Part shown: positions 28,650 to 49,502 of the stretch, in pieces
Position numbering within the stretch: position 1 is the first letter of the stretch
How the letters are laid out: the number at the start of each line of letters is the position of its first letter
From: a virus
DNA: 64,000 nucleotides
Direction: 5' to 3' (one strand)
IMG/VR virus record: IMGVR_UViG_3300042197_003184
Span: 1 to 64,000 of that record
Made by a program: the position numbers and the translations under genes
Notes under the pieces: model-generated
Databases searched by the model: none
Told to the model about the DNA's origin: nothing
Seen by the model: only the letters and a program-made list of their open reading frames with translations

Positions 28650-28756
28650 ATACTTTTTTTTGGTGTAATCTACTGATGTGTTCAATACTAGAAAAAACAA
28701 GTCAATATTCGATTAGTCCATAACTTCCTAACTTCATAATTCTGGAGATCCTAACT

Positions 28757-29797: not shown

Positions 29798-29832
29798 TAT
29801 AGTTAATTAGTAATAAGACTAGGTTCGAGGAC

Positions 29833-29991
29833 ATGAACGACAACAATATTGATGAATTACTGAATATAATAGGAAGACTGTATGTAGATGTCTATAACTG
29901 TCGCAAGGTTATAGACATTCTACAGCAGCAATTACAGTTTAAGGACAAGGAAATTCTAGAGCTAAAGAAGCCTAGAGAAACAGATGAATGA
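29833..29991 (+). CDS. 52-aa coiled-coil protein (absent from ORF track)
   Basis: GAGGA SD; MNDNNIDELLNIIGRLYVD... Confidence 0.6.
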   Translation: MNDNNIDELLNIIGRLYVDVYNCRKVIDILQQQLQFKDKEILELKKPRETDE

Positions 29992-31015: not shown

Positions 31016-31023
31016 GATATTAT

Positions 31024-31329
31024 ATGAATCATAATGAAATTTTAGATAATATTGAAACCAGATTTAAAACCACCATGATAGGATCATTAGCTAAATTTGA
31101 AGAATATTTTGGACACTTATGGGAAGATAATAATAAAAACAGATTAGAATACGAGAAGTTGTGGGAACAGGCTCGCAATGCTATATTAAATAATGGTAAC
31201 CATCAAATGAGATTAGCTTTGGACGAGCTATTTGATTATTTGGAATACAAACAGTCCGGACGTAATAATAAAACATTTAAGGAAAAGTATCGATACAAAT
31301 TTTATTTCAATAACGGAGATCATCAATGA
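31024..31329 (+). CDS. hypothetical protein
   Basis: AGGA SD; coupled ORF. Confidence 0.7.
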   Translation: MNHNEILDNIETRFKTTMIGSLAKFEEYFGHLWEDNNKNRLEYEKLWEQARNAILNNGNHQMRLALDELFDYLEYKQSGRNNKTFKEKYRYKFYFNNGDHQ

Positions 31330-32300: not shown

Positions 32301-35300
32301 ATGGCTGGTTTTAATCTAACGGCTCAACTTAATCTACAAGGACCCTCGAATGTCAGAAAAATAGTTTCTGATATTCAGAGACAATTAGGTACTATCAAAG
32401 GCACAATAGATTTCACTCTCAATCCGGGTACCGCCAGAAATGTTACTCAATTAAATTCTGCACTCAAAACACTAAACACCACTTTTACTACAACCAACAG
32501 AACAGCAGTGTCTGCTGCTAATGCTATATCTCAATTTAATGCTGCCGTTAGCGGTATTAACACCAGATCCTTGACCACGAACATTGCCAGCTCTGCAACA
32601 GCCACACAAAAACTGACATCGCAACAAAGACAAGCATCCAAAGCTATTGATGAGTCAGCTTATAGTATGCAGGAGTTTGGTAAGCAGTCTCAATTGGCTA
32701 TCAAAAGATTTATTGCCTATAGCGCTGCTGCTGGTCCTATTTTAGCAGTAGCTAATGCTGCTCGTAAGGGTATTAGCGCATTTATAGAGTTTGACTCAGA
32801 AGTTGTTAAATTACAACAGGTGACTGGCGAATCAGCAGGAGGACTAAAGGAACTAACTAATACTATCACGTCATTATCTAGTGGGTTGGGCGTTTCATCT
32901 AGCGAATTGGTTAATGTTTCGTCCACATTAGCCCAGGCAGGCTTGAGTGCTAGAGATACAGAAAAAGCACTGAAAGCTTTGGCTCTTAGTTCTTTGGCTC
33001 CGTCATTCGATAATATGAATCAGACGGTAGAAGGTAGTATCGCTCTTATGAGACAGTTCGGTATTCAGGCCGGTTCTCTTGAGGGAGCATTGGGGTCGGT
33101 TAATGCCGTGGCTGCTAGATTTGCCGTAGAAGCTAGCGACATTATTGCCGCTATTCAGCGTACTGGTGGTGTGTTTGCCAGTGCCAGTAAGGGGGTTAGC
33201 GAAGGTACAGATGCTCTTAATGAATTTATTGCTGTGTTTACCAGCATTAGAGCGACTACTCGTGAAAGCGCAGAAACTATTGCTACAGGCTTGCGTACTA
33301 TTTTTACAAGAATACAAAGAGGCGGAACAATAGACGCTCTAAAGGAATATGGGGTTAACCTAACGGATTTAGACGGAAAGTTCGTTGGTGCCTACAAAGC
33401 GGTCGAGTTGCTGTCAAAAGGTTTGAATCAGCTTGACCCTAGAGATATTAGATTCTCCAAAATCGTAGAAGAGCTTGGTGGATTTAGACAGATCGGTAAG
33501 GTTATTCCTCTTATCCAGCAGTTTGCTACGGCACAGGAGGCACTCGCTGTTGCTCAACAAGGACAAGGCTCCTTAACAGAAGATGCTGCTGTAGCACAGC
33601 TTGCACTAGCAAATCAGATCTCCAAAGTTCGAGAAGAATTTTTAGCTTTATTTAGAGATATAGGAGCATCTGACACATTTCAAACATTAGCTAAGGGAGC
33701 GCTACAATTAACCAGCGCTATTATTGGCGTTGCTGATTCTGTGAAGGGGGTATTGCCAGTTTTGGCACTAATAGGTTCTATCAAGGGTACACAAGCCTTG
33801 TTGGAGTTCGGCTATGGTTTTACTGGGAGATCATCATCTGGAAGCAATAGAAAAAATACTCGTAATTTTGCTACTGGCGGTTATGTCCCCGGTGTTGGTG
33901 ATACAGATAGCATACCAGCCAATCTAACCCCGGGCGAGTATGTTATGAGTAAAAGGGCTGTTAGATCTATCGGTGTTGGAAATTTAAATAAAATGAACAA
34001 AGCTGGTGGTGGTAAAATATCAGATTATGGCGGAGCGCCTGCTGGTACAACCATCAACAACAGAGAAAATAAACCTGTTGGTATATCTAATGATACCTTT
34101 AGTTATTCAGGATTTTTTAATCCCCAAGGGATTTCTGTCACGATATCTTACGACAAAAAAAATAAAAGATATACAGCTCAAGCCCCAGCCGGATCCAAGG
34201 TTTCTTTAACCAAAAACGATATCAAAACCCTATTCAAAAACAATAAAGCTTCAGCGACAAGATTCGAAGAAATTAGTAGGGGTACTCTGGGAGGAACATT
34301 AGCCAATACCACAGACCCTAATTATCCTATCGATATTATTGATGGACAAAAACTATACGACACAAAGCTTTCTGTACCAGGAAACTATAAAGAAAAAGAA
34401 GCGGTACTAAAGGTTTTAAACTATAAACTAGATAAAGCCAATATAGGATATCAATATAACCAAGGCTCACAAGCGATCAAATTGTCTAGACCATCACCTA
34501 GACTACTAGGAGCTAATCTGACGCCAGCTTCTGATCCATTAAAAGCCCGAGAGTCTTTTTCTTTCGTATATCCAAAATTTGAAAATATACAAACCAAAGA
34601 TATCCAGGATCTACAGACCGATTTACAAAACAGATACGAGACATTCTCTGGTCTTAGTAGTCAACAGAATAGTGGTAAAAATTTATCTGATGCTGCCAAT
34701 AGGCTCAAAAACTTATCACAATCAGCCATAGAAACCTATCAATCCGATGCCAGAGGCATGAGTGCTATTGATGAAATTTCAGGCGATAAAAATATAATAA
34801 ACCTACTAAGAAATTATTCTTCTAGATCTTCTGGTGGCATAATTCAGAAATTTGCTACAGCCGGGGTGGTTAAAGAGCCCCAAAACATACCGGATAAAGT
34901 CGCTGAACTAGCTGCCAAAAAACAGCTATCTATACAGGACGTTATATTGTCTGAGTTCCAAGCTATTACAGGAGCTAGACTAAAGAGAGATCTTGGTATT
35001 CCAAACGCCGTTAGTTTACCCAGGGTTCCAGATTTACGCGCCGGTGTTGGTGTTGATAAAATCAAAGAGTTGGTCAATCGATATCTGCATATGAAAGGTA
35101 TAGAGAGCGCAGCAAAAGCAGAACAGATTGCTAAGATGAGAAAAGTAGCAATCGCAGGATTATTTCCGTTAGATTACTCTAAGGATTTTGATGACTGGAC
35201 TCTAGAAGATGGTAGACAAATCTATGGTATGGTTAGAGGATTTGGGAGTGAGTTCTTAGATGATATTCAACTAATGCAGCAGCGCACCATGGCCGCTCGC

Positions 35301-38300
35301 GACGAGTTTGCCATTAATGTACAAAACCGAAAAGCTTTGGGGTTATTGGCTGGCTCTTCAGTTCAGGGGCCTATTCAGCCTCTGGCGATAGATTTTGATG
35401 AAACACTAGCTCTTGGCACAAAAATGGTTGATGCTCAAGGAGAAGAAGACTTAGCGGCATATCGAGACCCAACAAAAGTTGCCGATAGCTTAGCCAAAGC
35501 TCGCCCAACAACTTTGGCCCAGCGCATGGCTGAGATAGAGAAAAGCAATCCAGGAGTTCTAAGAAAATACTCTAGAATCCTAACCGCCAGACCACAAGAA
35601 ACAGCCAGCATCATTGCTGCTACACTAAATAGATTTGGTTTACCATATCTAGAAAGTGACATCACTGGCCTAGCAAAAGGTCTTGGTACCAATATTCCAC
35701 TAGCAAAAGCCAATGATTTAGGTATCTTTGAAAAACTTATCGACGATAGCGAAGCTAATGTCAAAGCCGTGAGATCGTCGGGGAAAAATGCTTTTCAATA
35801 CGGAGAAGTCGAACCTCTTACCTCCGCAGCTGCTGGAAAAATCGGACAGTCAAATGTTGAAGCTAGTATTTTAGAAGGAGCTATAGGACAACAACTAGGA
35901 TACCCTATAGATATTGCGGCTCTGGAAAGAAATAGAGCAGTAGACTTTCCCCAAGGTCTTGGTAGAGCTGCCCAATATTTTGGCATACCTCCAAATATAG
36001 AAACAGAGATCAAAAGAACATTAGATGGAGACGCTTTTTTTAAAGCCAGAGGAGAGTTCAGTAGGTATTTTACAGAAAATCCTTCTTTGTTTAGCAACGG
36101 AGGTCTGGTTCAGTTTTTTGCAGATGCTGGGGAGATCAAAGATAGATCTACTAAGAATAGAAGAAGAGGAGCTTATGGAGCAAGAGGTTTTGTTCCGTTA
36201 AATAGTAGAGAATACGAAGCCTTTGCTGATAAAGCTTATGCCGAGGCCGGTCCGTATGGTGGTCCTGGATGGGGAAAATCAGCGGGCGTACCAATGCCAA
36301 AAGTTTTGGCGGATTATGCTGAAAAAATAAATAGATATGTTTTTGAAACTGGTGGTGCTGGATTATCTATAGGTAAGAAATTAGTTAGGATTCCAGACAA
36401 TATTGAGCCAGAAGCACTGGAAGCGTTAAAAGAAGACTTGATTAGACAGTATGACGGATGGTATGCTGAGATAGAAGAGGTGATGCCGTTTGGTAAGGCT
36501 ATTAACACATCAAATCCAATAACTGTCGCCAAAAATGCCAGGATGCAAGCTGCCGCTATGGCCGAGGCTGGAAATGCAGCCTATACACAAGCCGAGGATG
36601 CTATATCTGGTTTCAAGAAAACAGGAATCCTTGCTGGTTTTGATCCGTCAATAGAGAGCCATATCAAAACTTCTTTCCCAGCATATATTAAAGAGCTAGA
36701 GTCTTCTTTGAGATCCGAGACAGACCCTGATGAAAAATCTTCTATACAAAGAAAACTCAAAAAGGCTCAGGCAGCATGGCCAGATTATCAATCTTTGTTA
36801 TCTGGTACTCCGGTAGCTAATCAGGGTAGAATTACTGGGCTTTCAGAAACTCTCAATACCCTATTGGAAAGATATGGTAGTCCGGTATCTTTTGGCGAAA
36901 TAGATAATATTATCAAAGCTATGGGCTCTAAATTGCTTGGCAAAGCCTCTGGTGGTCTCATATCTTCTTTTGCTAGTGGTGGCAAAATTGGATTAGATGA
37001 TATTCGCAAAACCATAGAGGATAAATATCCCGATTATAAGTTTAGAATTAATCCAAAATCTAGTGGTTTTGGCTATAGAATGTTAGTAAGACCAGCTTCC
37101 AAAGATGCTCCTGAATCTTTGATGGCTTTTGATCTGGTGTCCAGACTATCTGATGCTCCAGCATTGGCAGAAAAACTCATAGGCAGAATACAAGAACAAC
37201 AAGGTGCTCAAAAATTTGCTTCTGGTGGTTATATTCCTGCTATGGTCAGTAATGGAGAAGCATTTGTACCCCCCGAAACCGCACAGAAGATAGGCTTTCA
37301 TACTCTAAACAGAATGAATCAAGCTGATCGTAATGGTATGGGTCAATTTGCTGGTGGAGGAGATATTAGTTTATTTAAAGGACCAGGTAGTGGGACCAGC
37401 GATAGTATAGGGCCTATTCCTTTGCCTGTTGGTGGTTTTGTTATTCGTGAAGCGGCTACCAGAGCTTTGGGTTTATCTAGAAAAGGTGGTGGTCCTATAG
37501 GACAAATCAGGTCTTTTGCTGTCGGAGGAAATAAAGGAGTTCCTGTATTGGGGACTAATAGACCCGATATTGTAAGTAGGTCAACCGTTGCCGTGTCTCC
37601 AGACACTATTCAGGGCGTTGCCACCTTGATCGATATTCTAGGAGAACTCGGTAGTGTAGCAAAAAATTCCGCAGATCTCATTAAAACCAATGGAGAGATT
37701 AGTTATAAGGTAGTAGAAAAAGCATTGGTTAAAGACATAGAAAGATTAAAAATATCTGGAGCAGGAATAGATAAAATTGCAATTGCTGAAAAATTATTAT
37801 CTGAGACTAGAAATAAAGGTAAAGCAGAAGTAGATAAACAAAAAAACCTACAAGGATTATCCTCTTTGAGAGGTAGTTCTACCACAGCCATACTTGGTGG
37901 ACAAACCGTAGGTAATCTACAAGCAGGAGCTGGCGCTGGTCAGCAAGCCATTGAAACACAAGCTCAGATGATAATAGAAGAAAAGATCAAAGCTCGTGGA
38001 GGGAAGGTATCAGATAAGCAAAGAGCTAAGATAGTTGAGTCGTCGTATGTTGATGCTGCATCTCAAATAACTGGAGTTAATAAAAAAGATTTTAAGGCTG
38101 CTGGTATAGGAGGATCAGATATACAGCAATATATTGCTGAATCGATGAGAGATCGTAAGACCCTATCCCAAATGGATAAACAGCTTATTGCCATAAAGCA
38201 AGAAGAAGTCCGTAGATCTGCAAATTTTTCTAGTTTGTCCAGAACAGAACAACAGAGGCTGTTACAACAAGCCAAACAAACAGCCGAACAAGAAATTAAA

Positions 38301-41300
38301 ACCAGAAGAGAAATCGTTAATCAATTAGCAGCCGAACAGGGTCGAGCAGGTGTGGGCGATGGTTCCGGTTCTATGGCTAGCGGACTATTTAGAAGACTAG
38401 AGAATCCTTTGGTTGCTCTTGGTCTTAGTAGTATGGGATCATTATTGGGATCCGGCACTCCTGGCAGTTCCAGCGAAGCTTCTCAAAACGCAGGTATTCA
38501 ATCTGGCATATCTACACTTAGTCAAGGATTATTTTTATCAGGACAAGTAGCTAGTATATTAGGTCCGGTAGCCGGTGGTGCTACTTTAGCAGCTTCGGCT
38601 TTGGCTTCGATAGCCAGCGCTTTCAAAGATGGGCGCAACGCATTTATAGAATTTGAGAAAAACCTAAGATCACAAAGGTTACAGAATACGCTTGAGGCAT
38701 TAGGTAACACATTTGCCCAACTAGAGAAAGACGTTAAAAATTTAGATCTACAAAATCAGGTATCTTCTCAACTAGTATCTGCTGGGTCAGAAGCGCAATC
38801 TTTAAACGATATTGTTACAGAAATACCTAAAGCGTTTTGGGTCAATATGTTTGATGCTGCTTTTAGCAGCAATCAGAGAGAAGCTTCGGATAGATCAAGA
38901 ATACTTGAAAAATTTGGAATATCAGCATATTTGTCTTCTACTTCCGCTTTTGGTTCAGAAGATAACAGAAGATTTTTCAACAGACAACTAATACCAGAAC
39001 AAGCACTAGCCAATGCAAGAAGTTTTTCTGAGGTAGGATTAAATACTCGTAGATTCATAGAAAATAGGGCAGATGCTGGAGCTAGCCTCAACGAAATAAT
39101 GAACTCGGCCGACTTTGCTCAGTTTGCTCGAAACATAGCTTTATCTAATGTTGAAGTTCAGAAACAAATATTGGCTATACAAAACTCAACATCTGCCAAT
39201 AAAGAAGCCGAACAACAGGCTATTATCACCAGATATGCAGAATCAGAAACCATAAAAATCGCACAAGCAGCTTCTAGACGTAGAAATTCCGAAGGATTAG
39301 ACAGAGAAACCAGATCATTCTCTGTTAGTATACAAAGAATTTCTCAAAATATGCAGGACGTAATTTCTGTCATAAATAGTAATCTTACTAGATTTAATGA
39401 AAAAATAGAGTACACCGTAGCAGCCATGTCTGGACAAGCCAGATCTGGACAGGTGTCTTTTGGTACTCTAGACGTTTTAAGGTCACCAAACGCCTTTTCT
39501 GGTTTCGACAGACAATCAGCCGCCGACAGAGCAGGATCTTTATTTGGTGGCGACCAAAAACTCATCAGCTCCCTCCTTGTGCTAAACAAGAACCTAGAAG
39601 AAAATATTATGAGAGCTATAGATTCTACTATAGCTAATAATCCATCTTCTAGCGATACAAAAATAGGTTTAAGTATAGACCAAGCTGTTCAAAACACTAT
39701 TAATCAATTAAACCTACCAGACGCTATAACCAAACAACTTAGCAGAGAAATAGGATTGGCCGTTGATAGACTGAGACAAAGCGGTAAAGAAAAGATAGAT
39801 TTTGAAGCATTAAAAAACGAGGTGCCTCAGCTAGAAAATATTATATCTAGCACTAGAGTTGCCCAGGAAGGGGCGATAAAGGCTTTGGAAAACTGGCAAA
39901 ATCAATTAAATGAGTTGACTCAGGCCATGAATAAAAGCTCGGATCTACAAATTTCTGCTGCTGATCGTAGAAACCAAGCCGAAGATATCGTAATTAATAG
40001 CAGTATAGAACTAGCTAAAGCGCTAGGTAGGAATTTCTCTGCTGGCTTTGGTAATAACTTAAGAGATAGACGTACCGCACGATTAACGGGAGGAGCTACT
40101 TCCCCAGAGGATATTTCAAACAGGTTAAGGAATTTAACACAACTCGGGGAAAGTCAATCAGCCAGCCTAGCTGCTCAATCAGAAAGAAGTGTTGGAGATA
40201 CCGGATCTTTGGATTCTATTGTGGCTAATCAAAGAGCTTTGAGACAAACGAATAACGAACTCAGACAAACACAACAGGCTTTGAAAAATTTAGCAGAAAA
40301 TTCCGAGGCGGCATCTCTGGCCTTATCTTCTATCCAAGAAACACAACAAAGACAGCAAGGCCGGGTTGCCTTAATAGAAAAACTAGTATCTAGTACGCCA
40401 GAAGAACTGTATAAATTCAGTGCCGCAGCAGACAGGCTTCAAAAAATAGCCAGAGGACAACCGGTTAATCAAACCTCTGACGAAAGAAGAGAAACATTAT
40501 CTGTATTTAATGATATAGCTCCTATGTTGGGTTCTTCTTTAGAAGCCAATAATATGAGAGCCAATATGCTTGAATCAATGCTTAGTGAATCTGGTGTTGG
40601 TTTAACTCCTCAGTTTCAGGCTATATTAAATGCTCTCAGAGATCCCCAAACCGACCCAGCCACACAAAAGGCGATAGAAGAATATTCTAAAGCTATTGAT
40701 ATACAATCTAGAGCTAATATAGAATTAGCAAAAATTAATACAGACCTAGCAGACCAAATAGCAGATGCTTCGGCTCGTGCCCTAAAGGATGCTTTAACAA
40801 ATCAGGTAGTTAAGTTTGAAAGCACTCAACTGGCAGATATTGCCAGAGGACTAAGATCATTAACCACCACAACACAAAACCAAGCAGCACCCCCCGTAGC
40901 CAGAGCAGATGGTGGTATAATCTATGCTGCTACAGGAACTAACGTACCAGATTTTGCTCCGAGAGGAACAGATACGGTACCTGCTATGTTGACACCAGGA
41001 GAATTTGTAGTTAATCGTTCGGCAACACAAAAAAATCTGCCACTACTTAATGCTATAAACAATGGCTATAGTAAAGGAGGCAGGGTTTCTTATTATCAAG
41101 ACGGAGGTTATGTTAGCAGTACGCTGAGAGAAGAATATCAAAACAGAGAACCATTTAAGGAATCTAAAGGCTCCTATATGGTATTGCCAGAAAATATAGG
41201 AGAGCCAGAAGATTTATATACTTGGAACAAAGTTCGCAGTGTTGCTGTTCCGTCAACAGATAATGTTGAAAAAATTAATATAAACTCTAAACCCAATGAT

Positions 41301-44300
41301 CAGCTATATATAAAAGCCAATAGACAACTAGGTTATGGTTATACGGGATTTAGGGCTCAATATGATACTTCTGCCGGAGAGTATAGTTTTTGGAGATTCA
41401 ACCCAGAGGGGTCTTTATCTCCGAGTATACTAAAGCCTTTAGGTCGCTATTATTTAAGCCCAAGACTTCTTGAGCTTGGTTCAGGTTCAGAAAAACAAAA
41501 GCTGGTCGATCAAACCGGCATACCAAACCGAACAGAAATCGAGGATTATACAGCAAGACTAAATAATATTTTGAAACATCTACCGTCAAAAGCATCCAGA
41601 TCTGCTGGACAAGGAACTATTGAAATTGATGGCTCTAAAATCATAGTAGAAGATCAAAAGTTTGCTGGTAGCACCGGACAACTAACTGCTTATACCAAAA
41701 ACCAAGAAGTTGTTGTAAAAAATCTAGCCAAGTCTCTTGATAGCAACTTAAATTATGGATTATATACATCGTCTCCTATGGTTGGTTTGACCCATAGTCT
41801 TGATTCTATAATGGATTTTTCTGGAGATCATTGGGGTCGTTTTTTCTTTGGTAGTGCTGCTCAAACCCGCAAAGAATCCTCTGGTAGTTCTGAGTCTTTA
41901 TTACGAAGCACTAGTGGCGGTAAATATGCTTTAACGTATAATCCAAAATTAGATAGCTTATTTGATCCTGATAAATTACCAGACATTATTAGTGCATTGA
42001 AATCGTCTCAGGAAGCACTAGCTAATGAGGAATTTGCAACATCAGATAAGAATACTGGTATAGACAAACAGAATACAGCACTTAGAGAGTTATATATTGG
42101 CACCATAGCTAAACAAATATTGGAGGGTAGAGCATCCTCAAATCAACAAGATGGGCAATCAACAGACAAAGAATATGCTTATAAGTTTGGACCAGAATTT
42201 GCTAATGCATCTAAATTAACAGTTTATGGTGTGACAACTGACGAATGGACTAAATCCAGAGATGGCTCTGCTTCTTATCTACAAAGATTTCAAAGCATTA
42301 TCGGCAAACAAAAAGAAGCTAAATACTGGGATCCTGATGGGACGTACAAAACTCCGTTCGATATTGCTCCTAGAAGCGATTTGAATAGTAAGAAATTTTT
42401 CCCTTGGGTAGCTGGTGACGCTCCGGATCTGGCCGTTTTGGATGCTGAATTAAAAGAACGAGCAGATGCCACCCAGGCAGAAACGTATGGTAAACAAGGA
42501 GACACTATCCTAAAAAGCGGCAGATTCAAATTTAATGAGCTGCCATTTACTGTGCCATACGCTATGTCTTATGTGTCTTTAGAAAAGCCCAAAAAATATG
42601 ACGCAGCTACGGGGACTTATACAGACGAGAACCTACTGCCCAATGGGCTACAAAAAGCAGATATTATTAGTTCAGATAACTTATTTAGGAAAGCTAAGGA
42701 TGATTTTCCTAGTGTAACGGCAATTACGGATGCTACCGGCTCCAATGATAGCTCTGGTTCGTTAGGCTATGTTGCCGGTTTGATACAGAACTTTGTGAAT
42801 CAGTCTGATAGGTTCAAAAAATATTTTGGACTAATCAAAACGTCCTACTCAGAAGATCAGCCATCTGTTGAATTACAAAAGTTAAAATCGCAATTAAAAT
42901 ATTCTACTATTAATTTGGCTGGTAGTCAAAGTCCTTTCTTTGGCTTCTTAACGGGCTCAAATAAACAGTATACAGGTTATGATTCGCTAACCAGACCACT
43001 AACTATTGGCGATGTATTATTGGACCTAATAGACAGAGAAGCCAAGAATAAAACCTCAACTTTATCTGCTATAAAAAATCAAAGATATTCGTCTAAACCA
43101 GAAGACTCTGACAACAAAACCAACTTCAAACTATCCCAGTATCCTGCACTGGCTCAGGGGTTAATATACTCAGCATATGACCTATTTGGTTCTGGTAAGA
43201 CATACGAAATGCCTAATAGTTTGGGTCGTGGCTGGTTTAGTCCTCGAATGAGCCAAAGATATAATAGTATTTTTGAGATTCAGCCTGAACTTATTCAGGA
43301 TTATATGAAACAGCTATCTATTATTTTTGGAAATCAATATGCTAATCTAGAATCGAACTTATCTAGATTTGTTGGAACACCAGAATATGACAAAGCTATA
43401 GAGACCATGAGCTACTTACAAGGTGCTCAAAAGGCTTTCTTTATGATTGGTGATCCGGCGACTGGTACGTCGGTACTAGGAGGCTTGCTGGATAGATCAA
43501 TGTTTGATGATAGGGTTTTTGACCAAGCCGAAAAAGAAGCAATAACCAATGTTTTCAAATCGTTAGGCGCTTCTGGTAAAGACTCCAGAATTCGCAGTCG
43601 TTTATTGGATACTATATCGGAGGATGAGAAAGTAGATTGGGAAAGACAATTAACTGGGTCTAGAATTAATGATCCCAAAACAAAAAACTCAGCAACACAA
43701 GAATTTGGCGAAGTGAATGTTCCACAAACATTCAATGATCTTTTTGATTTAGGTATTAATCCATATAATCAATTTACTAATCGAAATATTAGAAAATCTA
43801 TTTTTGATAGATTTTTAAGCAATATTGCAACAGCTCAAGACAGAAGAGGCAGACCACTATTCTCTACTAGTGGCGGTAAAGAGTTTGGAGATGCTTTAAG
43901 CAATCTGCGTTTGTGGTATGGTGGAAATGACGAAGATTGGCAGGGCTTAGATTATTTATATGATAAAAACATCAAACCCATAGAGAATACCGATACTGTC
44001 CCATCATATAATGATAGATGGAACGAACTCAATAGCTTTAATAGAAAAGATAATCTCTATAAAGATGCTGAAACCTCTCACTCATTAGTGGGCGGTAGAG
44101 AAAAATTTGGAGAGCTTCCTCCATTAGATTTTTATAAAGACAGAGGAGACGAGATCCAATATCGACGTACTGGTGGTATTATTTATGCTTCTCAAGGATC
44201 ATTAGTTAACTTTGAGCCTAGAGGCACAGATACTGTTCCTGCGATGTTGACTCCAGGAGAATTTGTCGTAAATCGATCTGCTACGCAAAAACACTTGCCG

Positions 44301-47300
44301 CTATTGAGAGCGATCAACGACGGAGCAAAGGGTTATAGTAGCGGCGGTGTGGTATACCTCAGTAGCGGAGGTTTAACACCAGCACAAGAAACTAGATTTA
44401 ATGAACTTAGTGGTATGTCTTCTAGAAATAGAGAAGAAGAAAATGAGTACATTGATCTGAAAAATAAAAGAATGTCTGGAGGGGCACAATCGAGTTCTAC
44501 AACAACGCAATCTAATATTCAACAGTCACGCAGAACCGCTGTAAGAGAGCGTAATCAGAGAATGGCGCTAATGGCCATACCTCCCAACGAAAGAACTCCA
44601 GAGCAGCAAGAAAGATATAATGCTCTGATAGCTAAGAGAGATAAAGATAGACCAGAAATAGCTAAACGCAATGCTAATTATAGAGCTTCACAAGCTTATA
44701 ATGCAGAAGCTGAAAGACGCAGTAACGAAAGACTAGTGAATCAATATGCCGATGAATACAGATCGTCTGGTAGCGAATTATCCCCAGAAGAGTGGGCAGC
44801 ACAAAACAAACCAGGAATGAGGGGTCAGAGACTGGACGGCTTCTTAGCTAGAGTATCTGGTTCAGACTATGATTATGGTCGTAAAATGACTGACCAGGAA
44901 TTTGCTGACGCTGGTACAGCTAATAGAGCAAGGCTAGATGCTTCAACACAACAAAAGGCTCAACAATACACCTCAGGGTCTTCACCTGCTCAACAGCCAG
45001 CCGCACAAACCGGCTCCAAACCAATGTTACCGCCTAGTGAGCAAGAACAAGAACCAGCAGATTCCACAGTCCCTTCTATACCTGCGCCTCCGGCACCGGC
45101 GGCAGAACCACCAAAACCAGCGCCAGCACCAGCGGTTGAGCCACCCAAACCAGCGCCAGCACCAGCGGTTGAGCCACCCAAACCAGCGCCAGCACCAGCA
45201 CCAGCACCAGCGGTTGAGCCACCCAAACCAGCTACAGTACCAGCACCAGTTTGGGCAAGAGGAGGAACAGACGAGGATCCGTTTGCTGAACGAGCCAAAC
45301 CATCACCAGCAGACGCCGCTAAAACAAGAGCAGAAGAAAGAAGAACAGCTTCTGAGGAGCAACAAACAGAAGCAAGAAAAGAAAGAAGAGAGCTAAGACG
45401 AGCAGCTGCTCAACAAAGAGAAGATATTATAGCAGAAACTCGTAGACGACTAGAAATGACTATTAGTCGTGAAGAAGCAACAATTAAAGATAAAGCCAAG
45501 AACAGAGAAGAGTCCGGTTGGTGGGCTGCGTCTATGAGAGGTATGGGATTAATGTCTGATCCTTACGAAGCAGAAATGGCCGCTTCTCGACAAAGAATCA
45601 CAGCAGCTAGAATGGGTTTGTCAGAATTAAAGACTGCTACTGTAGACGTTTCTCCGTCAGGATATGTGCGAGATACGTTCAAAGTTGAAAACTTTAATGC
45701 TGCTAGAAGATTAGCTGGATTAGACGAGGTAACTACCGGAGTTGACTCTGCTGGAAATATGACAGTATCTCGCGTGGAAAAAGATGAGACAGAAAAAGCT
45801 AATGATGCTGCAAGAAGAGCTGCTGATACGGCCTATAGCAGACAGTTGATGGATAATGAGCAGTCACAGATTACAGCAGCTAGAGACATTAGTATAGATA
45901 GTGTTTTGGCTGTTGGTGGAGTAGCTACAGGAGTTGCTGGTATGGCTACTCGTGGTGGCACAATGGCTCTTCAACAAGCAGGCAAAATAGGACTTAGACA
46001 AGTAGCTAAAACAGCAGCCTTGGAAGGCGCTGCTGAAGGTTTAGCTGGAGGAACCACAAGAGCAATTGATGACGTAACTAGAGGAGCTAAAACAACTCAA
46101 GAAGGCATATCTTCCGCACTATTAGAATCTACTATAGGAGGTGTTGCAGGTAGTGTGTTGGGTCCTGCTTTTTCTGTAGGAATACCGGCTGCTGGCAGAG
46201 TATTAAGTGGTATGGGTTCGTTTGTTGGAGATATGGCGAGTCCTATTACCAAGCCAATAGGCGACTTAATGTCATCTACATATGATTCAATTTCTCGCGG
46301 CTTATCAGGAATGTCAGATTATTTGGATTTACCCACCCAGTCCAGATACTCAGCATTACTACCGTCCGATCCTAAGCAAGCAAAACAATACAGGGCTCTT
46401 GTGTCTGCTGGCCGTGGACCTAGAGAAGCTATCGAAGAACTAGATGAAATCCTAAGAACCGGCTCTAACAGGTTTGACAAACAAGAAGAAGCTTTCGCCC
46501 AATGGACATCTAAGAATCTCTTTGATTTTGTTGGTATGCAGCCCGGTAGTTTGGTAAGTAGACTACGAAGCAATCCTCTCGACGGGTTATTTGATAATAT
46601 TAACTCGGGACCAGGAATAGGCAGACCAAGAGGGTCTTTATCGGAAATTGCTGGGGTAGATAAGTATAGAATACCCAATTTATCAGACGAAGCTGCCCGA
46701 CCAGTACAGAAAATGAAAGTAACAGCAGCTCAAGTCACAGAATATCAAAAATTAATAGATTCTGGAATGAACCCGGCATCGGCTCAACAACAGGCACTAA
46801 GACAAACTTCAACAACAGAAACAGCGCCCGCCACGGCCGCTCAAATCTATAGACAAAATTTACCAAGAGCGATAGACGATCCATCTCGTATGGAACAGGG
46901 TTTGTATAGAACGCAAGTGCGTAAGGGCTCATATGACAATCCCGATAATATGAACAGGTGGTTTTATCCAAAAAATCCTGGTATAGATATGATCGGAGAC
47001 TCTATAAATACCGGATATAAACCCAGATTTGCTGTAAAAGAAGGTAAAATGAACGAAATGATTGAGCGCATGGCAGCCGACGAACGGTTGTCTTGGATGC
47101 TTGGTCCGAGCGGTTTTAAACAGCAGCCGTTTGGAGAAGAGGTATTATCAGGTAGAGACAACAGATTTTTAGTTCTGTATAGCAGTAGAGGTACGTCCGA
47201 CGAAGCTTTAGCTATCACTCAACGTATGGAAGAGATTGGAGAAGATCTTCTTTTTGCAGGAGGGGCGAAGGATTATGGCGACAGAATGGCGCTAGGAAAA

Positions 47301-49502
47301 TTCGGCAGTACCAGATATGATCCAGATCTCACAACGCTTACCAATCCCCCAGGACTACAAAAAACACTATTAGACTTAAGACAAAGATGGCTGTCAGAGC
47401 GTGGCTCTTCTTCATACGATCCTGATTTCGCTGCTTTTGACCAAGCATTAGTCAAACAACAAGACTACAGACTAGCTCTTTATGAGGCCGGTAAAAGAGC
47501 ACCAGGCACAATGATGGATAAATTTTATAAGGATTATCCCGACTTATTCCCGAGTTATGCTGGAGATATCAGCTACTCACCAGCCTCTACTTCGGCACTA
47601 TCGGATGCTGTACCAGTAGCAGCTAAACAACCTAACACATCAACGTCTACTGCTCCGACTGACAAGATTACAATAACCCCTCCCAATGACATAGCACAAC
47701 CAACCGCGATTTTCAACAGAATAAGAGCAACAAGACAACTACAGTCTTCAGCAGAAAATTCAGCTGGTATCAATCTATCAGCACCTGAACAATTGTCTTT
47801 GACAGAAGATGCTTTGTCCAGACTACAAGAAATTCAACTAGATAGCGACTACGTCAGCAATCGCGCCCTTGGTAATTTTCGCGGTGATATCAAACAGGGT
47901 GAATCCAAAACAGGATTGTTTAGTGGTACTATACAGATTGGAAAAAAGAGCATAGGCAATCTAGAAGTTTTAGGACACGAGAGACTACACGCCGCATCCT
48001 TTATCATGCAACAATTAGATAATATTACTGGAGGAAATATAGCTCCAGAAGTTTTAGATTTAATGGCGAACAAATTAAATTTAAATTTAAAATCGGTAGA
48101 GATAATAAGATCTGGCGCTGGTAAAAGAAGTCTAAATTTTGCAAAAAACACAACCGATCCAGAAAAGCTTTCCGCTTTACAAAACATGGATATTTTACCA
48201 GCATCACTACCGGATCAAAAAATACTAAAAGCCTCCGTTCTTGCAGAAAGATTCCTAGAAGAGTACCAGGTTGCTCAAGCATTAAAATTTGGAGAAAATA
48301 TATCTAATATAAATTTACGTAGTGTTGATACTACAAGAAAAGCCCTTCTAAAAGAACTATCACAATTTACAACAGCAGACAGTATAGCTCCAATTAAAAA
48401 GAGACTGTCAGAAGTTATTCCAACAAACAAATTAGATACACTACTTGATTCTGGTGCTGGTCCTTTTACTCCTAAAGATATATACCCACTTCCCACCAAT
48501 AAATCAGGAATACTAGATAATATCTTGTCTATTATACAGTCTCCTGGAAATCTGAGTGAAAATCTAGGTTCCAAACTAATGCAACAACCTGGCCTAAAAG
48601 ACTTTATCGACAAGATAGCGTCTGATAATCCTCAGGTAGCAAGCCTAGCAAAATCAGCTAAAACCCCATTAAAATTCTTAACTAATCTATCAACATTTGG
48701 ATTGGGGTTCTCTGCTGCTGGCATTGCTCTAAGAAATCTAATGTCAACAGATCCCAATCGGCCGAATGTTGTAGAGGCTCGAACCAGATCTTTGATGCCC
48801 GGAGAAAATCCAGAAGACCCAAATACTAAACCCTTAAGATCTTATTATTCTGACGGTACCCCAGTACCAGAAGACGAACAACCCAAAGAAACAAAAAGAA
48901 TGAGCACCGGAGGTATTGTTTATGCCAATAATGGTGCTTTTATAGCTGCTACCAGAGGATCTGACAGTGTTCCGGCAATGCTAACTCCGGGCGAGTTTGT
49001 GGTAAATAGACAAGCAGCAGCTAATAATATGACATTATTACATGCTATTAATAGTGGTCATTATACTCACGGAGGATTAGTTAAATATTTAGCTAATGGC
49101 GGGGTGGTACAGCCCAAATATTTGGAGTATGGCTCTCAAAACCCAGTAAATTCTATTAACAATCAGGCTGCTAATAGTGGTGTATTATCTAGTAGAGTTA
49201 GCCAGAATATGGTATCGCAACAGGTTCAGGCACCATCTTTTGACTACTCAAAAATGGAGCAATTATTTAATAGGTTTGAACAAGCTATGGATAGGAGCGC
49301 CAGCGCCATTAAAGACGGAGGCACAATCGAACACAAACTCACAGGAGAAGTCAAAACAGCATACGACCAGAAATCTATCCAAGATATTATTGGTAGATCT
49401 GTTGGTATCAGTAATTCCAACACTAACGCCCAAGTCAATAATGCTCAAGCAAATACAAATAGAACATTATTCAACAATACTGACGGAGCAATAGACCCCT
49501 AG
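32301..49502 (+). CDS. giant tape measure protein (TP901-type core) with embedded enzyme-like domains
   Basis: N-terminal TMP core (RESAETIATGLRTIFTRI); repeated DxxPAMLTPGEFVV motifs; HAD, PD-(D/E)xK-like and HExxH motifs. Confidence 0.88.
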   Translation: MAGFNLTAQLNLQGPSNVRKIVSDIQRQLGTIKGTIDFTLNPGTARNVTQLNSALKTLNTTFTTTNRTAVSAANAISQFNAAVSGINTRSLTTNIASSATATQKLTSQQRQASKAIDESAYSMQEFGKQSQLAIKRFIAYSAAAGPILAVANAARKGISAFIEFDSEVVKLQQVTGESAGGLKELTNTITSLSSGLGVSSSELVNVSSTLAQAGLSARDTEKALKALALSSLAPSFDNMNQTVEGSIALMRQFGIQAGSLEGALGSVNAVAARFAVEASDIIAAIQRTGGVFASASKGVSEGTDALNEFIAVFTSIRATTRESAETIATGLRTIFTRIQRGGTIDALKEYGVNLTDLDGKFVGAYKAVELLSKGLNQLDPRDIRFSKIVEELGGFRQIGKVIPLIQQFATAQEALAVAQQGQGSLTEDAAVAQLALANQISKVREEFLALFRDIGASDTFQTLAKGALQLTSAIIGVADSVKGVLPVLALIGSIKGTQALLEFGYGFTGRSSSGSNRKNTRNFATGGYVPGVGDTDSIPANLTPGEYVMSKRAVRSIGVGNLNKMNKAGGGKISDYGGAPAGTTINNRENKPVGISNDTFSYSGFFNPQGISVTISYDKKNKRYTAQAPAGSKVSLTKNDIKTLFKNNKASATRFEEISRGTLGGTLANTTDPNYPIDIIDGQKLYDTKLSVPGNYKEKEAVLKVLNYKLDKANIGYQYNQGSQAIKLSRPSPRLLGANLTPASDPLKARESFSFVYPKFENIQTKDIQDLQTDLQNRYETFSGLSSQQNSGKNLSDAANRLKNLSQSAIETYQSDARGMSAIDEISGDKNIINLLRNYSSRSSGGIIQKFATAGVVKEPQNIPDKVAELAAKKQLSIQDVILSEFQAITGARLKRDLGIPNAVSLPRVPDLRAGVGVDKIKELVNRYLHMKGIESAAKAEQIAKMRKVAIAGLFPLDYSKDFDDWTLEDGRQIYGMVRGFGSEFLDDIQLMQQRTMAARDEFAINVQNRKALGLLAGSSVQGPIQPLAIDFDETLALGTKMVDAQGEEDLAAYRDPTKVADSLAKARPTTLAQRMAEIEKSNPGVLRKYSRILTARPQETASIIAATLNRFGLPYLESDITGLAKGLGTNIPLAKANDLGIFEKLIDDSEANVKAVRSSGKNAFQYGEVEPLTSAAAGKIGQSNVEASILEGAIGQQLGYPIDIAALERNRAVDFPQGLGRAAQYFGIPPNIETEIKRTLDGDAFFKARGEFSRYFTENPSLFSNGGLVQFFADAGEIKDRSTKNRRRGAYGARGFVPLNSREYEAFADKAYAEAGPYGGPGWGKSAGVPMPKVLADYAEKINRYVFETGGAGLSIGKKLVRIPDNIEPEALEALKEDLIRQYDGWYAEIEEVMPFGKAINTSNPITVAKNARMQAAAMAEAGNAAYTQAEDAISGFKKTGILAGFDPSIESHIKTSFPAYIKELESSLRSETDPDEKSSIQRKLKKAQAAWPDYQSLLSGTPVANQGRITGLSETLNTLLERYGSPVSFGEIDNIIKAMGSKLLGKASGGLISSFASGGKIGLDDIRKTIEDKYPDYKFRINPKSSGFGYRMLVRPASKDAPESLMAFDLVSRLSDAPALAEKLIGRIQEQQGAQKFASGGYIPAMVSNGEAFVPPETAQKIGFHTLNRMNQADRNGMGQFAGGGDISLFKGPGSGTSDSIGPIPLPVGGFVIREAATRALGLSRKGGGPIGQIRSFAVGGNKGVPVLGTNRPDIVSRSTVAVSPDTIQGVATLIDILGELGSVAKNSADLIKTNGEISYKVVEKALVKDIERLKISGAGIDKIAIAEKLLSETRNKGKAEVDKQKNLQGLSSLRGSSTTAILGGQTVGNLQAGAGAGQQAIETQAQMIIEEKIKARGGKVSDKQRAKIVESSYVDAASQITGVNKKDFKAAGIGGSDIQQYIAESMRDRKTLSQMDKQLIAIKQEEVRRSANFSSLSRTEQQRLLQQAKQTAEQEIKTRREIVNQLAAEQGRAGVGDGSGSMASGLFRRLENPLVALGLSSMGSLLGSGTPGSSSEASQNAGIQSGISTLSQGLFLSGQVASILGPVAGGATLAASALASIASAFKDGRNAFIEFEKNLRSQRLQNTLEALGNTFAQLEKDVKNLDLQNQVSSQLVSAGSEAQSLNDIVTEIPKAFWVNMFDAAFSSNQREASDRSRILEKFGISAYLSSTSAFGSEDNRRFFNRQLIPEQALANARSFSEVGLNTRRFIENRADAGASLNEIMNSADFAQFARNIALSNVEVQKQILAIQNSTSANKEAEQQAIITRYAESETIKIAQAASRRRNSEGLDRETRSFSVSIQRISQNMQDVISVINSNLTRFNEKIEYTVAAMSGQARSGQVSFGTLDVLRSPNAFSGFDRQSAADRAGSLFGGDQKLISSLLVLNKNLEENIMRAIDSTIANNPSSSDTKIGLSIDQAVQNTINQLNLPDAITKQLSREIGLAVDRLRQSGKEKIDFEALKNEVPQLENIISSTRVAQEGAIKALENWQNQLNELTQAMNKSSDLQISAADRRNQAEDIVINSSIELAKALGRNFSAGFGNNLRDRRTARLTGGATSPEDISNRLRNLTQLGESQSASLAAQSERSVGDTGSLDSIVANQRALRQTNNELRQTQQALKNLAENSEAASLALSSIQETQQRQQGRVALIEKLVSSTPEELYKFSAAADRLQKIARGQPVNQTSDERRETLSVFNDIAPMLGSSLEANNMRANMLESMLSESGVGLTPQFQAILNALRDPQTDPATQKAIEEYSKAIDIQSRANIELAKINTDLADQIADASARALKDALTNQVVKFESTQLADIARGLRSLTTTTQNQAAPPVARADGGIIYAATGTNVPDFAPRGTDTVPAMLTPGEFVVNRSATQKNLPLLNAINNGYSKGGRVSYYQDGGYVSSTLREEYQNREPFKESKGSYMVLPENIGEPEDLYTWNKVRSVAVPSTDNVEKININSKPNDQLYIKANRQLGYGYTGFRAQYDTSAGEYSFWRFNPEGSLSPSILKPLGRYYLSPRLLELGSGSEKQKLVDQTGIPNRTEIEDYTARLNNILKHLPSKASRSAGQGTIEIDGSKIIVEDQKFAGSTGQLTAYTKNQEVVVKNLAKSLDSNLNYGLYTSSPMVGLTHSLDSIMDFSGDHWGRFFFGSAAQTRKESSGSSESLLRSTSGGKYALTYNPKLDSLFDPDKLPDIISALKSSQEALANEEFATSDKNTGIDKQNTALRELYIGTIAKQILEGRASSNQQDGQSTDKEYAYKFGPEFANASKLTVYGVTTDEWTKSRDGSASYLQRFQSIIGKQKEAKYWDPDGTYKTPFDIAPRSDLNSKKFFPWVAGDAPDLAVLDAELKERADATQAETYGKQGDTILKSGRFKFNELPFTVPYAMSYVSLEKPKKYDAATGTYTDENLLPNGLQKADIISSDNLFRKAKDDFPSVTAITDATGSNDSSGSLGYVAGLIQNFVNQSDRFKKYFGLIKTSYSEDQPSVELQKLKSQLKYSTINLAGSQSPFFGFLTGSNKQYTGYDSLTRPLTIGDVLLDLIDREAKNKTSTLSAIKNQRYSSKPEDSDNKTNFKLSQYPALAQGLIYSAYDLFGSGKTYEMPNSLGRGWFSPRMSQRYNSIFEIQPELIQDYMKQLSIIFGNQYANLESNLSRFVGTPEYDKAIETMSYLQGAQKAFFMIGDPATGTSVLGGLLDRSMFDDRVFDQAEKEAITNVFKSLGASGKDSRIRSRLLDTISEDEKVDWERQLTGSRINDPKTKNSATQEFGEVNVPQTFNDLFDLGINPYNQFTNRNIRKSIFDRFLSNIATAQDRRGRPLFSTSGGKEFGDALSNLRLWYGGNDEDWQGLDYLYDKNIKPIENTDTVPSYNDRWNELNSFNRKDNLYKDAETSHSLVGGREKFGELPPLDFYKDRGDEIQYRRTGGIIYASQGSLVNFEPRGTDTVPAMLTPGEFVVNRSATQKHLPLLRAINDGAKGYSSGGVVYLSSGGLTPAQETRFNELSGMSSRNREEENEYIDLKNKRMSGGAQSSSTTTQSNIQQSRRTAVRERNQRMALMAIPPNERTPEQQERYNALIAKRDKDRPEIAKRNANYRASQAYNAEAERRSNERLVNQYADEYRSSGSELSPEEWAAQNKPGMRGQRLDGFLARVSGSDYDYGRKMTDQEFADAGTANRARLDASTQQKAQQYTSGSSPAQQPAAQTGSKPMLPPSEQEQEPADSTVPSIPAPPAPAAEPPKPAPAPAVEPPKPAPAPAVEPPKPAPAPAPAPAVEPPKPATVPAPVWARGGTDEDPFAERAKPSPADAAKTRAEERRTASEEQQTEARKERRELRRAAAQQREDIIAETRRRLEMTISREEATIKDKAKNREESGWWAASMRGMGLMSDPYEAEMAASRQRITAARMGLSELKTATVDVSPSGYVRDTFKVENFNAARRLAGLDEVTTGVDSAGNMTVSRVEKDETEKANDAARRAADTAYSRQLMDNEQSQITAARDISIDSVLAVGGVATGVAGMATRGGTMALQQAGKIGLRQVAKTAALEGAAEGLAGGTTRAIDDVTRGAKTTQEGISSALLESTIGGVAGSVLGPAFSVGIPAAGRVLSGMGSFVGDMASPITKPIGDLMSSTYDSISRGLSGMSDYLDLPTQSRYSALLPSDPKQAKQYRALVSAGRGPREAIEELDEILRTGSNRFDKQEEAFAQWTSKNLFDFVGMQPGSLVSRLRSNPLDGLFDNINSGPGIGRPRGSLSEIAGVDKYRIPNLSDEAARPVQKMKVTAAQVTEYQKLIDSGMNPASAQQQALRQTSTTETAPATAAQIYRQNLPRAIDDPSRMEQGLYRTQVRKGSYDNPDNMNRWFYPKNPGIDMIGDSINTGYKPRFAVKEGKMNEMIERMAADERLSWMLGPSGFKQQPFGEEVLSGRDNRFLVLYSSRGTSDEALAITQRMEEIGEDLLFAGGAKDYGDRMALGKFGSTRYDPDLTTLTNPPGLQKTLLDLRQRWLSERGSSSYDPDFAAFDQALVKQQDYRLALYEAGKRAPGTMMDKFYKDYPDLFPSYAGDISYSPASTSALSDAVPVAAKQPNTSTSTAPTDKITITPPNDIAQPTAIFNRIRATRQLQSSAENSAGINLSAPEQLSLTEDALSRLQEIQLDSDYVSNRALGNFRGDIKQGESKTGLFSGTIQIGKKSIGNLEVLGHERLHAASFIMQQLDNITGGNIAPEVLDLMANKLNLNLKSVEIIRSGAGKRSLNFAKNTTDPEKLSALQNMDILPASLPDQKILKASVLAERFLEEYQVAQALKFGENISNINLRSVDTTRKALLKELSQFTTADSIAPIKKRLSEVIPTNKLDTLLDSGAGPFTPKDIYPLPTNKSGILDNILSIIQSPGNLSENLGSKLMQQPGLKDFIDKIASDNPQVASLAKSAKTPLKFLTNLSTFGLGFSAAGIALRNLMSTDPNRPNVVEARTRSLMPGENPEDPNTKPLRSYYSDGTPVPEDEQPKETKRMSTGGIVYANNGAFIAATRGSDSVPAMLTPGEFVVNRQAAANNMTLLHAINSGHYTHGGLVKYLANGGVVQPKYLEYGSQNPVNSINNQAANSGVLSSRVSQNMVSQQVQAPSFDYSKMEQLFNRFEQAMDRSASAIKDGGTIEHKLTGEVKTAYDQKSIQDIIGRSVGISNSNTNAQVNNAQANTNRTLFNNTDGAIDP
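45081..45250 (+). repeat. coding tandem repeat (PAPAVEPPK)n
   Basis: 33-bp units within the tape measure gene. Confidence 0.9.

Follow-up and report, generated by a model that had tools for sequence, protein, structure and literature searches.

A giant TP901-type tape measure protein with a conserved backbone, a recurrent glycine-flanked module and two hypervariable regions

Introduction

The tail tape measure proteins (TMPs) of siphophages are usually treated as passive rulers, and a single published case, that of the Thermus phage P23-45, presents one as an enzyme carrier, with an N-terminal virion RNA polymerase that transcribes the pre-early genes (Nat Commun 2024, PMC10770324). Here we describe a 5,733-residue TMP encoded in the first 64 kb of a 139,964-bp viral record in IMG/VR (IMGVR_UViG_3300042197_003184; CheckV completeness 94%), a metagenomic contig without end repeats; this stretch of 64,000 nucleotides, the whole of the DNA analyzed, is referred to below as the window. 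The protein combines a conserved backbone with two hypervariable regions, A and B, set between copies of a short glycine-flanked module, and region A encloses an insert with a predicted HAD-fold phosphatase domain.

In the siphophage tails solved to date, the TMP's C-terminal end is anchored in the tip and the chain fills the tube, from which it is expelled before the DNA to build a trans-envelope conduit. The P23-45 TMP, which carries its functional enzyme into the host, resembles the protein described here in being giant and in bearing its cargo N-proximally, as region A does, whereas its cargo is single, fixed and located at the extreme N terminus, neither a repeated module nor swappable slots have been reported for it, and its 800-nm tail is documented. 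The polyvalent proteins, in turn, are very large, virion-delivered mosaics of effector domains, including ADP-ribosyltransferases, nucleases and HExxH peptidases, and a metallopeptidase embedded in them has been suggested as their processing enzyme (Iyer et al. 2017, PMC5512222). They share with the present family a domain content that is mosaic across relatives (HAD here; ADP-ribosyltransferase, HAD and EF-hand in the relatives), but they are packaged in the head or transferred by conjugation, have no repeated junction module, and are described in PMC5512222 without tape measures; moreover, only one domain, the HAD unit, is identified in the 5,733 residues of our protein. A third point of comparison is the cultured Nodularia phage vB_NpeS-2AV2, which has a 139-kb genome and a giant TMP (NC_048637.1, 124378-134592) with two tandem copies of the module at residues 984-1109 (71% identity over the motif core), and which differs in its unrelated TMP core, its mostly helix-type composition and its lack of comparable inserts. 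TMPs with embedded enzymes and polyvalent virion proteins are kinds already known, and the protein described here is a variant thereof.

Results and Discussion

A member of a family of giant TP901-type tape measure proteins

The gene forms a single open reading frame (ORF) that is unbroken across 17.2 kb (Table 1), and its N-terminal core matches PF10145 (77.4 bits against a cut-off of 33.2, residues 188-381), TIGR01760 (88.9 bits, cut-off 28.8, residues 148-486) and several PHROG TMP families, which bears out the tape measure of 5,733 residues called in an earlier reading of the window (hereafter the original prediction). When the whole protein was searched in four chunks against Pfam, PHROG and NCBIfam, only this core and module-type PHROG matches were recovered. 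Large terminase and portal genes are recognized upstream, on the same strand and in the usual order, and profile searches gave no family match for the genes directly flanking the TMP, of which the one at 31326-32204 is a chaperone candidate.

A word-indexed search retrieved at least 285 homologous proteins of 3,153-10,033 residues; the 120 listed among them, on which the family statistics below are based, span 3,313-7,872 residues, are all 50-76% identical to the query across the core, and nearly all carry PF10145. The related contigs measure 100-250 kb, and direct terminal repeats mark several of them as complete. No close cultured relative was found by megablast with window positions 17249-32204, and the core reaches cultured phages only through SPbeta YomI-type TMPs, at 27% identity. 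These matches identify the 5,733-residue protein as a genuine TP901-type tail tape measure of a large family of uncultured siphophages.

A length-constrained backbone separates two hypervariable regions

We cut the query and its 120 relatives (121 proteins) at their modules and linkers, which are described below, and clustered the resulting pieces. Three pieces recur, always in the same order: the core (121 of 121 proteins), block S5 (115) and block S6 (103). S5 has a median length of 1,165 residues across the family (901-1,535) and a helix-type composition, with 2-4% aromatics and 1-2% proline. S6 diverges fast in sequence, the query having only 10 direct neighbors at 24-32% identity, and nevertheless holds its length at ~992 residues (872-1,093, sd 46); its last ~180 residues (S6c) are modeled as a helical domain with pLDDT 72-89, for which, together with the following module M5, Foldseek returned no match, and a search of S6 in the ESM Atlas gave no usable match either. 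Region A, in contrast, ranges from 278 to 2,826 residues (sd 595), and the stretch that follows S6, comprising region B and the C-terminal end, from 0 to 3,688 residues (sd 886 for region B). Total TMP length accordingly follows the lengths of A (r 0.59) and of B (r 0.77), and shows no correlation with S5 (0.03) or S6 (0.12).

Residue-by-residue coverage of the query draws the same picture. Residues 1-575, 2050-2935, ~3950-4035 and ~5550-5600 are covered by 110-120 of the 120 relatives, S6c (residues 3800-3950) by 86-97, and residues 2950-3750 by 9-43. Within region A, coverage falls to ~8-15 relatives over residues 576-850 and 1300-1600, each of the inserts S1, S3 and S4 being found in only that many, and stands at 29-86 over residues 857-1264, that is, over insert S2; across residues 4100-5450 it is 0-4. 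The places at which relatives part company are not random: 43% of the ends of long alignments between family members lie within 25 residues of a module, versus 13% for random positions, and 3.6% lie within 10 residues of a GG linker, versus 0.7%, a 5-fold excess. The proposal that inserts differ among relatives at linkers and modules is thereby supported.

The order and length of S5 and S6 are constrained while A and B vary freely, and S5 and S6 are therefore backbone rather than swappable cargo, with polymorphism concentrated in regions A and B. The original prediction had pictured the protein as a cargo train of unrelated domains; that description holds for two slots and fails for S5 and S6. 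A length held despite sequence drift is what should be expected of a measuring or spacing element, and free length variation what should be expected of payload.

Table 1. Positions of the tape measure gene and its parts in the 64-kb window
Feature	Residues	Window position (nt)	Strand	Remarks
Whole tape measure gene	5,733 aa	32301..49502	+	Single ORF without internal stop
TP901-type TMP core	1-519	32301..33857	+	PF10145, TIGR01760, PHROG TMP families; hydrophobic stretch at its end (470-501)
Module M1	520-578	33858..34034	+	Motif core nt 33906; module HMM 63 bits; matches C-terminal ends of TMP PHROGs
Hypervariable region A	579-1627	34035..37181	+	Inserts S1, S2, S3, S4 parted by three linkers; 278-2,826 aa across the family
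Linker GGIIQKFATAG	845	34833-34865	+	Fits GG-h-h-x-x-F-A-x-[AG]-G
Insert S2, folded three-part unit	857-1264	34869..36092	+	AlphaFold2 mean pLDDT 86.3
HAD-fold phosphatase domain in S2 (predicted)	~1021-1171	35361..35813	+	Motifs and structure matches
Linker GGLVQFFADAG	1267	36099-36131	+	Fits GG-h-h-x-x-F-A-x-[AG]-G
Linker GGLISSFASGG	1551	36951-36983	+	Fits GG-h-h-x-x-F-A-x-[AG]-G
Tandem degenerate modules M2 and M3	1628-1677 and 1680-1727	37182..37481	+	Motif cores nt 37236, 37401; HMM 32, 37 bits
Backbone block S5 (~1,140 aa)	1728-2866	37482..40898	+	115/121 proteins; hydrophobic stretch 2083-2108
Module M4	2867-2938	40899..41114	+	Motif core nt 40971; HMM 99 bits
Backbone block S6 (~1,010 aa)	2939-3951	41115..44153	+	103/121 proteins; length-constrained, sequence-divergent
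Module M5	3952-4024	44154..44372	+	Motif core nt 44229; HMM 94 bits
Hypervariable region B	4025-5530	44373..48890	+	Most of length in 0-4/120 relatives
Tandem DNA repeat, 33-nt period		45078..45244	+	Region B; copies up to 98% identical; encodes (A/V)EPPKPAPAPA
HExxH motif, H5226-E-R-L-H5230	5226-5230	47976..47990	+	Conserved in one alignable relative
Module M6	5531-5603	48891..49109	+	Motif core nt 48963; HMM 90 bits
C-terminal tail, presumed tip-docking end	5604-5733	49110..49499	+	Cluster common to 17 proteins

Region A contains a predicted HAD phosphatase

Insert S2 is the one part of the variable regions to which a fold can be given. Its AlphaFold2 model is confident throughout most of its length, and all Foldseek matches with E below 0.003 (ranks 1-6) are HAD-superfamily phosphatases or hydrolases, including AphA, HAD hydrolases of Pseudomonas fluorescens and Deinococcus, and phosphoserine phosphatase; HAD-fold proteins make up almost the whole list, with the HAD domain of Legionella Lem4 and the T4 Pnkp phosphatase following at E 0.004-0.016. 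In an independent structural search with VIA-align, the best match is the 3' phosphatase of T4 Pnkp (Z 10.9; 126 residues aligned at rmsd 3.2 Å), followed by T4 PNK and the RNA-repair enzyme Pnkp1, and nearly all of the 19 chains with Z of at least 8 are HAD proteins. In an alignment of 27 sequences from related viral loci, 26-59% identical to the query, the expected active-site residues are retained: motif I (D1031-x-D1033-x-T1035) and the motif III lysine K1136 are at least 90% invariant, motif IV (D1148-D1149) is invariant, and T/S1095 of motif II precedes an invariant ARP. These loci were obtained via the core, a related-loci search with S2 alone having found none. At the sequence level S2 has no match in Pfam, and its profile reaches PDB chains only marginally (E 0.16).

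On the strength of the model and the motifs, the middle subdomain of S2 is a predicted HAD phosphatase closest to T4 Pnkp. The two share a cap-less HAD fold and the DxDxT nucleophile motif, and T4 Pnkp is the best structural match, yet the identity is 14%, S2 lacks the kinase domain and has additional N- and C-terminal subdomains, and it resides inside a tail protein. The C-terminal subdomain (residues ~1176-1264) has a near-invariant D359 and K382-R383-T384 with an acidic residue two positions before the lysine, a PD-(D/E)xK-like arrangement of which only two short strands are modeled, in part at pLDDT 55-73; in the structure searches it was masked by the HAD domain, which filled the lists.

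S1, S3 and S4 have no detectable family, and S1, S3-S4, S6 and S7 gave nothing below E 0.18 against PDB sequences. The original prediction of globular inserts is confirmed for S2; the remaining inserts have an S2-like composition (7-14% aromatics and 4-7% proline, versus 2-6% and 1-2% in the helical core and S5). Its claim of several catalytic motifs likewise stands firmly for the HAD unit, while the HExxH motif discussed below is conserved in one detectable relative only. Because the other inserts match nothing, enzyme cargo is demonstrated within this TMP for one unit, S2.

The same slot holds other enzymes in relatives

A Pfam search of variable stretches taken from related records, nine of region A and ten of region B, found EF-hands in three and ADPrib_exo_Tox in two of them. 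In 6 of 46 related virus records the ADP-ribosyltransferase family PF03496 exceeds its cut-off, always inside TMP reading frames of 5,079-7,795 residues, and in the three records that were mapped, two of which are near-duplicates, it lies in region A. One of this pair encodes a TMP of 7,794 residues with 11 modules, in which two ADP-ribosyltransferases flank a HAD unit: region A begins with an ADP-ribosyltransferase (residues ~914-1055), a GG linker at residue 1078 and the HAD unit (~1268-1506), and ends with the second ADP-ribosyltransferase (~1583-1669), a GG linker at residue 1699 and the module pair. Precomputed Pfam labels add a staphylococcal-nuclease domain in one relative.

Judged by these domain matches, the slot that holds the phosphatase here holds other enzymes in relatives. 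The polymorphic effector set that had been proposed is borne out to the extent of the HAD unit in this protein and the ADP-ribosyltransferases and EF-hands in the variable regions of its relatives, and not in the sense that every segment is cargo. Furthermore, the variable parts are internal to the TMP and not C-terminal as in polymorphic toxin systems.

Region B is nearly orphan and carries a candidate metallopeptidase motif

Region B opens with a charged stretch and then a Pro/Ala repeat, continues with a helical part in which two hydrophobic stretches are rich in Gly/Ala (residues 4530-4630), and closes with an orphan domain followed by a domain with an HExxH motif. It has no match in Pfam, NCBIfam or PDB sequences, and an exhaustive HMMER search of 1.84 billion representative proteins with residues 4641-5530 yielded 4 matches, all lacking a Pfam domain. 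The closest relative retains HEKLH at the HExxH site within a 30%-identical alignment of 663 columns and shares a downstream FLEEY(Q/K)VAQALKFGE; the segment around residue 5226 may be a zincin-type metallopeptidase.

The higher GC content of region B suggested a recent foreign origin, which we reject: GC at third codon positions (GC3) is within the range of the gene, and the high overall GC follows from the Ala, Pro, Gly and Arg content. Slippage within the 33-nt tandem repeat that encodes the Pro/Ala stretch is likely to make this site polymorphic in length.

A conserved module recurs between the units

The DxxPAMLTPGEFVV motif recurs at the six positions where the original prediction had placed it (Table 1). 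Using a hidden Markov model (HMM) built from the copies themselves, we delimit six copies of a ~70-residue Gly-flanked module and three collapsed linkers in the 5,733 residues. The module is laid out as [QKFAxGG]...G-T-D-T-V-P-A-M-L-T-P-G-E-F-V-V-N...[GGxV], with the consensus EAQKFASGG...YAKGGKV at its flanks. The sequence VPAMLTPGEFVVNR is identical in M4, M5 and M6, which match one another at BLAST E-values of 1e-22 to 1e-28 and match M1 at 3e-07 to 9e-06, and in the M5 stretch GTDTVPAMLTPGEFV-N, 17 of 18 consecutive positions are invariant across 13 sequences whose overall identity to the query is no more than 35-46%. Across the 121 proteins there are 743 modules, 3-11 in each (median 6), the first directly after the core and the last a median of 148 residues from the C terminus; the tandem pair ahead of S5 is present in relatives too.

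The peptide is better preserved than its DNA. M4 and M5 have 33 of 40 residues in common, 18 of these with different codons (71% nucleotide identity), and between the modules that flank S6, DNA identity is down to 71-77%. That the copies stem from recent duplication or gene conversion was considered and rejected, as synonymous sites differ; since they do so while the peptide is conserved, the copies are old and kept by selection at the protein level, and ordinary homologous recombination would find them poor substrates.

Three short paired GG linkers lie within region A where they had been predicted. Their pattern occurs at least once in 41 of the 121 family members, mostly as GGhhQKFAxGG, versus 0.008 times per protein in shuffled family sequences. 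By its sequence, the linker is in effect a module without its core, in which the C-terminal GGxV of one module is joined directly to the QKFAxGG of the next.

Five module segments searched against Pfam at E-values up to 10 gave no match, and a single module against PDB sequences only chance matches. In the AlphaFold2 monomer model the module has a pLDDT of 33-45, versus 72-89 for the preceding S6c domain, and a homotrimer prediction scored 0.01 with the fold of the partner itself uncertain, which gives no verdict either way. Extreme conservation combined with the lack of a stable monomer fold points to a partner-dependent element, such as an oligomer interface, a docking peptide or a recognition site.

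The module is a widespread element of tape measure proteins

A profile of the six copies matched exactly three solved chains, all of them TMPs, with no non-TMP chain below E 10: gp16 of mycobacteriophage Douge (1,699 residues; two internal copies at 964-1030 and 1412-1459, E 2.7e-10), the TMP of Pseudomonas phage JBD30 (1,158 residues; 1019-1087, E 3e-5) and lambda gpH (853 residues; 747-789, E 3.2e-4), where it reads PAGIVHRGEFVFTKEATSRIGVGNL...GYATGGYVG. Among cultured phages, tblastn returned module matches in 75 records, inside the TMP gene in every case listed, and the hosts include Gordonia, Mycobacterium, Nodularia, Brevundimonas, Ralstonia and Erythrobacter; Brevundimonas phage Bambus is one of those with internal modules. 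Judging from these matches, the module is already present in known phages as a widespread TMP element and is not specific to this protein.

The mycobacteriophage TMPs share internal module copies with our protein, two in Douge gp16 and one in Hurricane gp20 (1,382 residues; 880-948), but have only 1-2 modules, ~1.4-1.7 thousand residues and a TMP_3-type core. We know of no multi-kilobase variable regions in mycobacteriophage TMPs. The TMP of TM4 reportedly carries an established, small embedded peptidoglycan-hydrolase motif.

The solved virions leave the module unresolved, the visible TMP residues being 1658-1699 in Douge, the last 33 in JBD30 and 818-849 in lambda, where the segment at ~690-817 that holds the module copy is missing from the maps (PMC12617516). 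Lambda gpH is processed after tail assembly into gpH* and gpHC by a cut in a Gly-rich stretch just upstream of the module, with both the exact site and the enzyme unmapped, and three of the six gpHC copies may be lost from the virion (PMC12617516); being directly downstream of the cut, the lambda module copy falls inside gpHC. Lambda gpH therefore resembles our protein in having a module copy with a Gly-rich flank and a virion-unresolved segment, in line with the low-confidence monomer model here, and differs in having one copy near the C terminus, no inserts and another TMP core, versus six copies and three linkers here. Cleavage is established for lambda gpH and would extend to the 5,733-residue TMP only by analogy.

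A short, extremely conserved and uncatalogued module is thus common to lambda, JBD30 and mycobacteriophages and sits beside the unmapped gpH cut, and since lambda gpH carries its copy next to the cleavage region, the role of the module is directly testable in lambda.

A model of tail-borne payload and its alternatives

We consider it rather probable that the protein is a fixed backbone with two enzyme-bearing payload slots, which the tail probably delivers into the host. The backbone, comprising the core, S5, S6 and the C-terminal tail, would set tail length, plug the tube and form the trans-envelope conduit through its hydrophobic helices. The C-terminal tail presumably docks in the tip, as do the solved TMP C termini of JBD30, Douge and lambda. 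Regions A and B would be payload leaving the tail with the TMP, ahead of the DNA, and with the C terminus of a TMP located at the tail tip, region B would be the first to exit. It would probably act in the envelope, a role with which its hydrophobic helices and putative HExxH metallopeptidase fit. Region A, as the neighbor of the head-proximal core, would be the last to leave, immediately before the genome, and would probably act in the cytoplasm, where its phosphatase may heal nucleic-acid ends bearing a 3'-phosphate or remove nucleotide signals, and where relatives would use ADP-ribosylation instead. A Pnkp-like phosphatase and an ADP-ribosyltransferase would each suit an early cytoplasmic role, for example in countering nucleic-acid-cleaving or nucleotide-signaling defenses or in modifying host proteins. 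The modules would most likely serve as flexible, partner-dependent joints that separate the units. If so, the giant TMP family suggests that enzyme carriage is widespread and modular among hundreds of uncultured large siphophages, and the enzymes exchanged in the slots are plausibly first-strike tools against host defenses.

Several observations weigh against this interpretation. S1, S3, S4, S6a/b and S7 are without a recognizable family or fold in library and PDB searches. With a tail tube lumen of about 4 nm, three or six folded S2 units of 45 kDa each would exceed the available space, so they would have to be unfolded, cut away or located outside the tube. The ordinary GC3 of region B leaves its recent acquisition without support; the module is modeled at low confidence as a monomer and is invisible in every solved virion; and tails of great length are known among phages with TMPs of this class.

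The last point leads to the best-placed alternative, which we nonetheless regard as unlikely, namely that the chain of 5,733 residues is extended in the tube over its whole length, with the inserts counted in, and specifies an extremely long tail, the inserts being filler or incidental enzymes. It overlaps with the payload interpretation, in that cargo could count toward length too. At the textbook ratio of 0.15 nm per residue the whole chain amounts to 5733 x 0.15 nm = 860 nm. Deletion of the Mt3 motif of the TM4 TMP reportedly shortens the tail, which counts in favor of such a ruler. The original prediction had reasoned that a pure ruler would give a tail near 850 nm and that much of the protein is therefore probably payload; its arithmetic is correct, but the argument is weaker than it appeared, as tails of this length have been published. 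The TMP of 2AV2 has 3,404 residues for a tail of 795 nm (PMC6293099, Table 1), or 0.23 nm per residue, and that of P23-45 has 5,002 residues for 800 nm, even though ~1,100-1,200 of them form the RNA polymerase (PMC10770324). JBD30 uses 1,158 residues for 180 nm.

Set against this, family members of 3,313-7,872 residues with 50-76% identical cores differ in length entirely through A and B while S5 and S6 stay constrained, which is the pattern expected if only the backbone measures. In addition, the 2AV2 TMP is helix-type over ~2,000 residues (3.6% aromatics), whereas ~2,900 residues here are of globular type, and S2 is a compact fold. The family-wide length pattern and the helix-type composition of 2AV2 thus favor measuring by the backbone only. 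The predicted tail would be ~0.33 µm if helix-type parts alone counted, ~0.40-0.46 µm for the backbone, 0.86 µm for the whole chain and more than 1.3 µm at the 2AV2 ratio; should the whole protein measure, these phages would have the longest tails known. As an aside, the 2AV2 ratio of 0.23 nm is well above 0.15 nm per residue, so that either its chain is partly extended rather than helical or the published length needs rechecking.

Within the payload interpretation, the modules and linkers may also be sites at which the chain is cut, by analogy with lambda gpH, an idea that we hold possible but doubtful. In a more specific and slightly more speculative form, also rather doubtful, the module would be a dedicated processing or release element, with a cut at each module or linker either after ejection or during tail maturation. 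If this were true, one gene would yield a ruler, a conduit and a programmable set of free effectors, and in the invariant GTDTVPAMLTPGEFVVN one would have the determinant of recognition or self-cleavage for which lambda gpH* has been waiting for fifty years.

A distinctly less probable variant makes the gene a polyprotein precursor, from which the inserts would be released at the modules and linkers before or during tail assembly, to act in the producing cell or be built in elsewhere instead of being injected. The post-assembly cut of lambda gpH and the possible loss of half of its gpHC copies, the conserved HExxH in region B and the strong conservation of the Gly-Gly motifs are all compatible with it. 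The HExxH-bearing region B, however, is found in 1-2 of the 120 relatives while modules are universal, so cutting in cis by a protease of this nearly orphan region cannot account for the family as a whole. Early infection would also be a more sensible time than late infection for an ADP-ribosyltransferase or a nucleic-acid end phosphatase to act. Finally, although the record is a metagenomic contig without end repeats, the notion that the giant ORF is an artefact of misassembly or a read-through fusion of several genes can be dismissed as next to negligible, given the unbroken frame, the conserved module order and backbone, and the recurrence of this architecture in at least 285 proteins whose source samples are independent and include complete genomes with terminal repeats.

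Other features of the window

The window contains no tRNA genes. Three genes downstream of the TMP, a 1,751-residue ORF (54283-59538, plus strand) is likely the central tip or fiber protein; the sole family to which it gives a signal is tail sheath Gp18-like domain I, at 22.6 bits and thus below the cut-off of 27. A 757-residue protein (51746-54019, plus strand) has a short DUF4651 match at residues 583-602 (E 3e-11 for the whole protein) in which no stretch passes alone and which is probably due to low complexity. Upstream, a 315-residue protein of the structural module (25366-26313, plus strand) combines an N-terminal PHROG 1084 match with a proprotein-convertase P-domain at its C-terminal end (PF01483, E 1.9e-8). 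It may serve in decoration or as a tube protein, bearing a jelly-roll appendage. Large ORFs occupy the minus strand up to position 12585 and the plus strand from 13430. The sign of the GC skew flips there as well, which marks a boundary of divergent transcription in front of the structural module.

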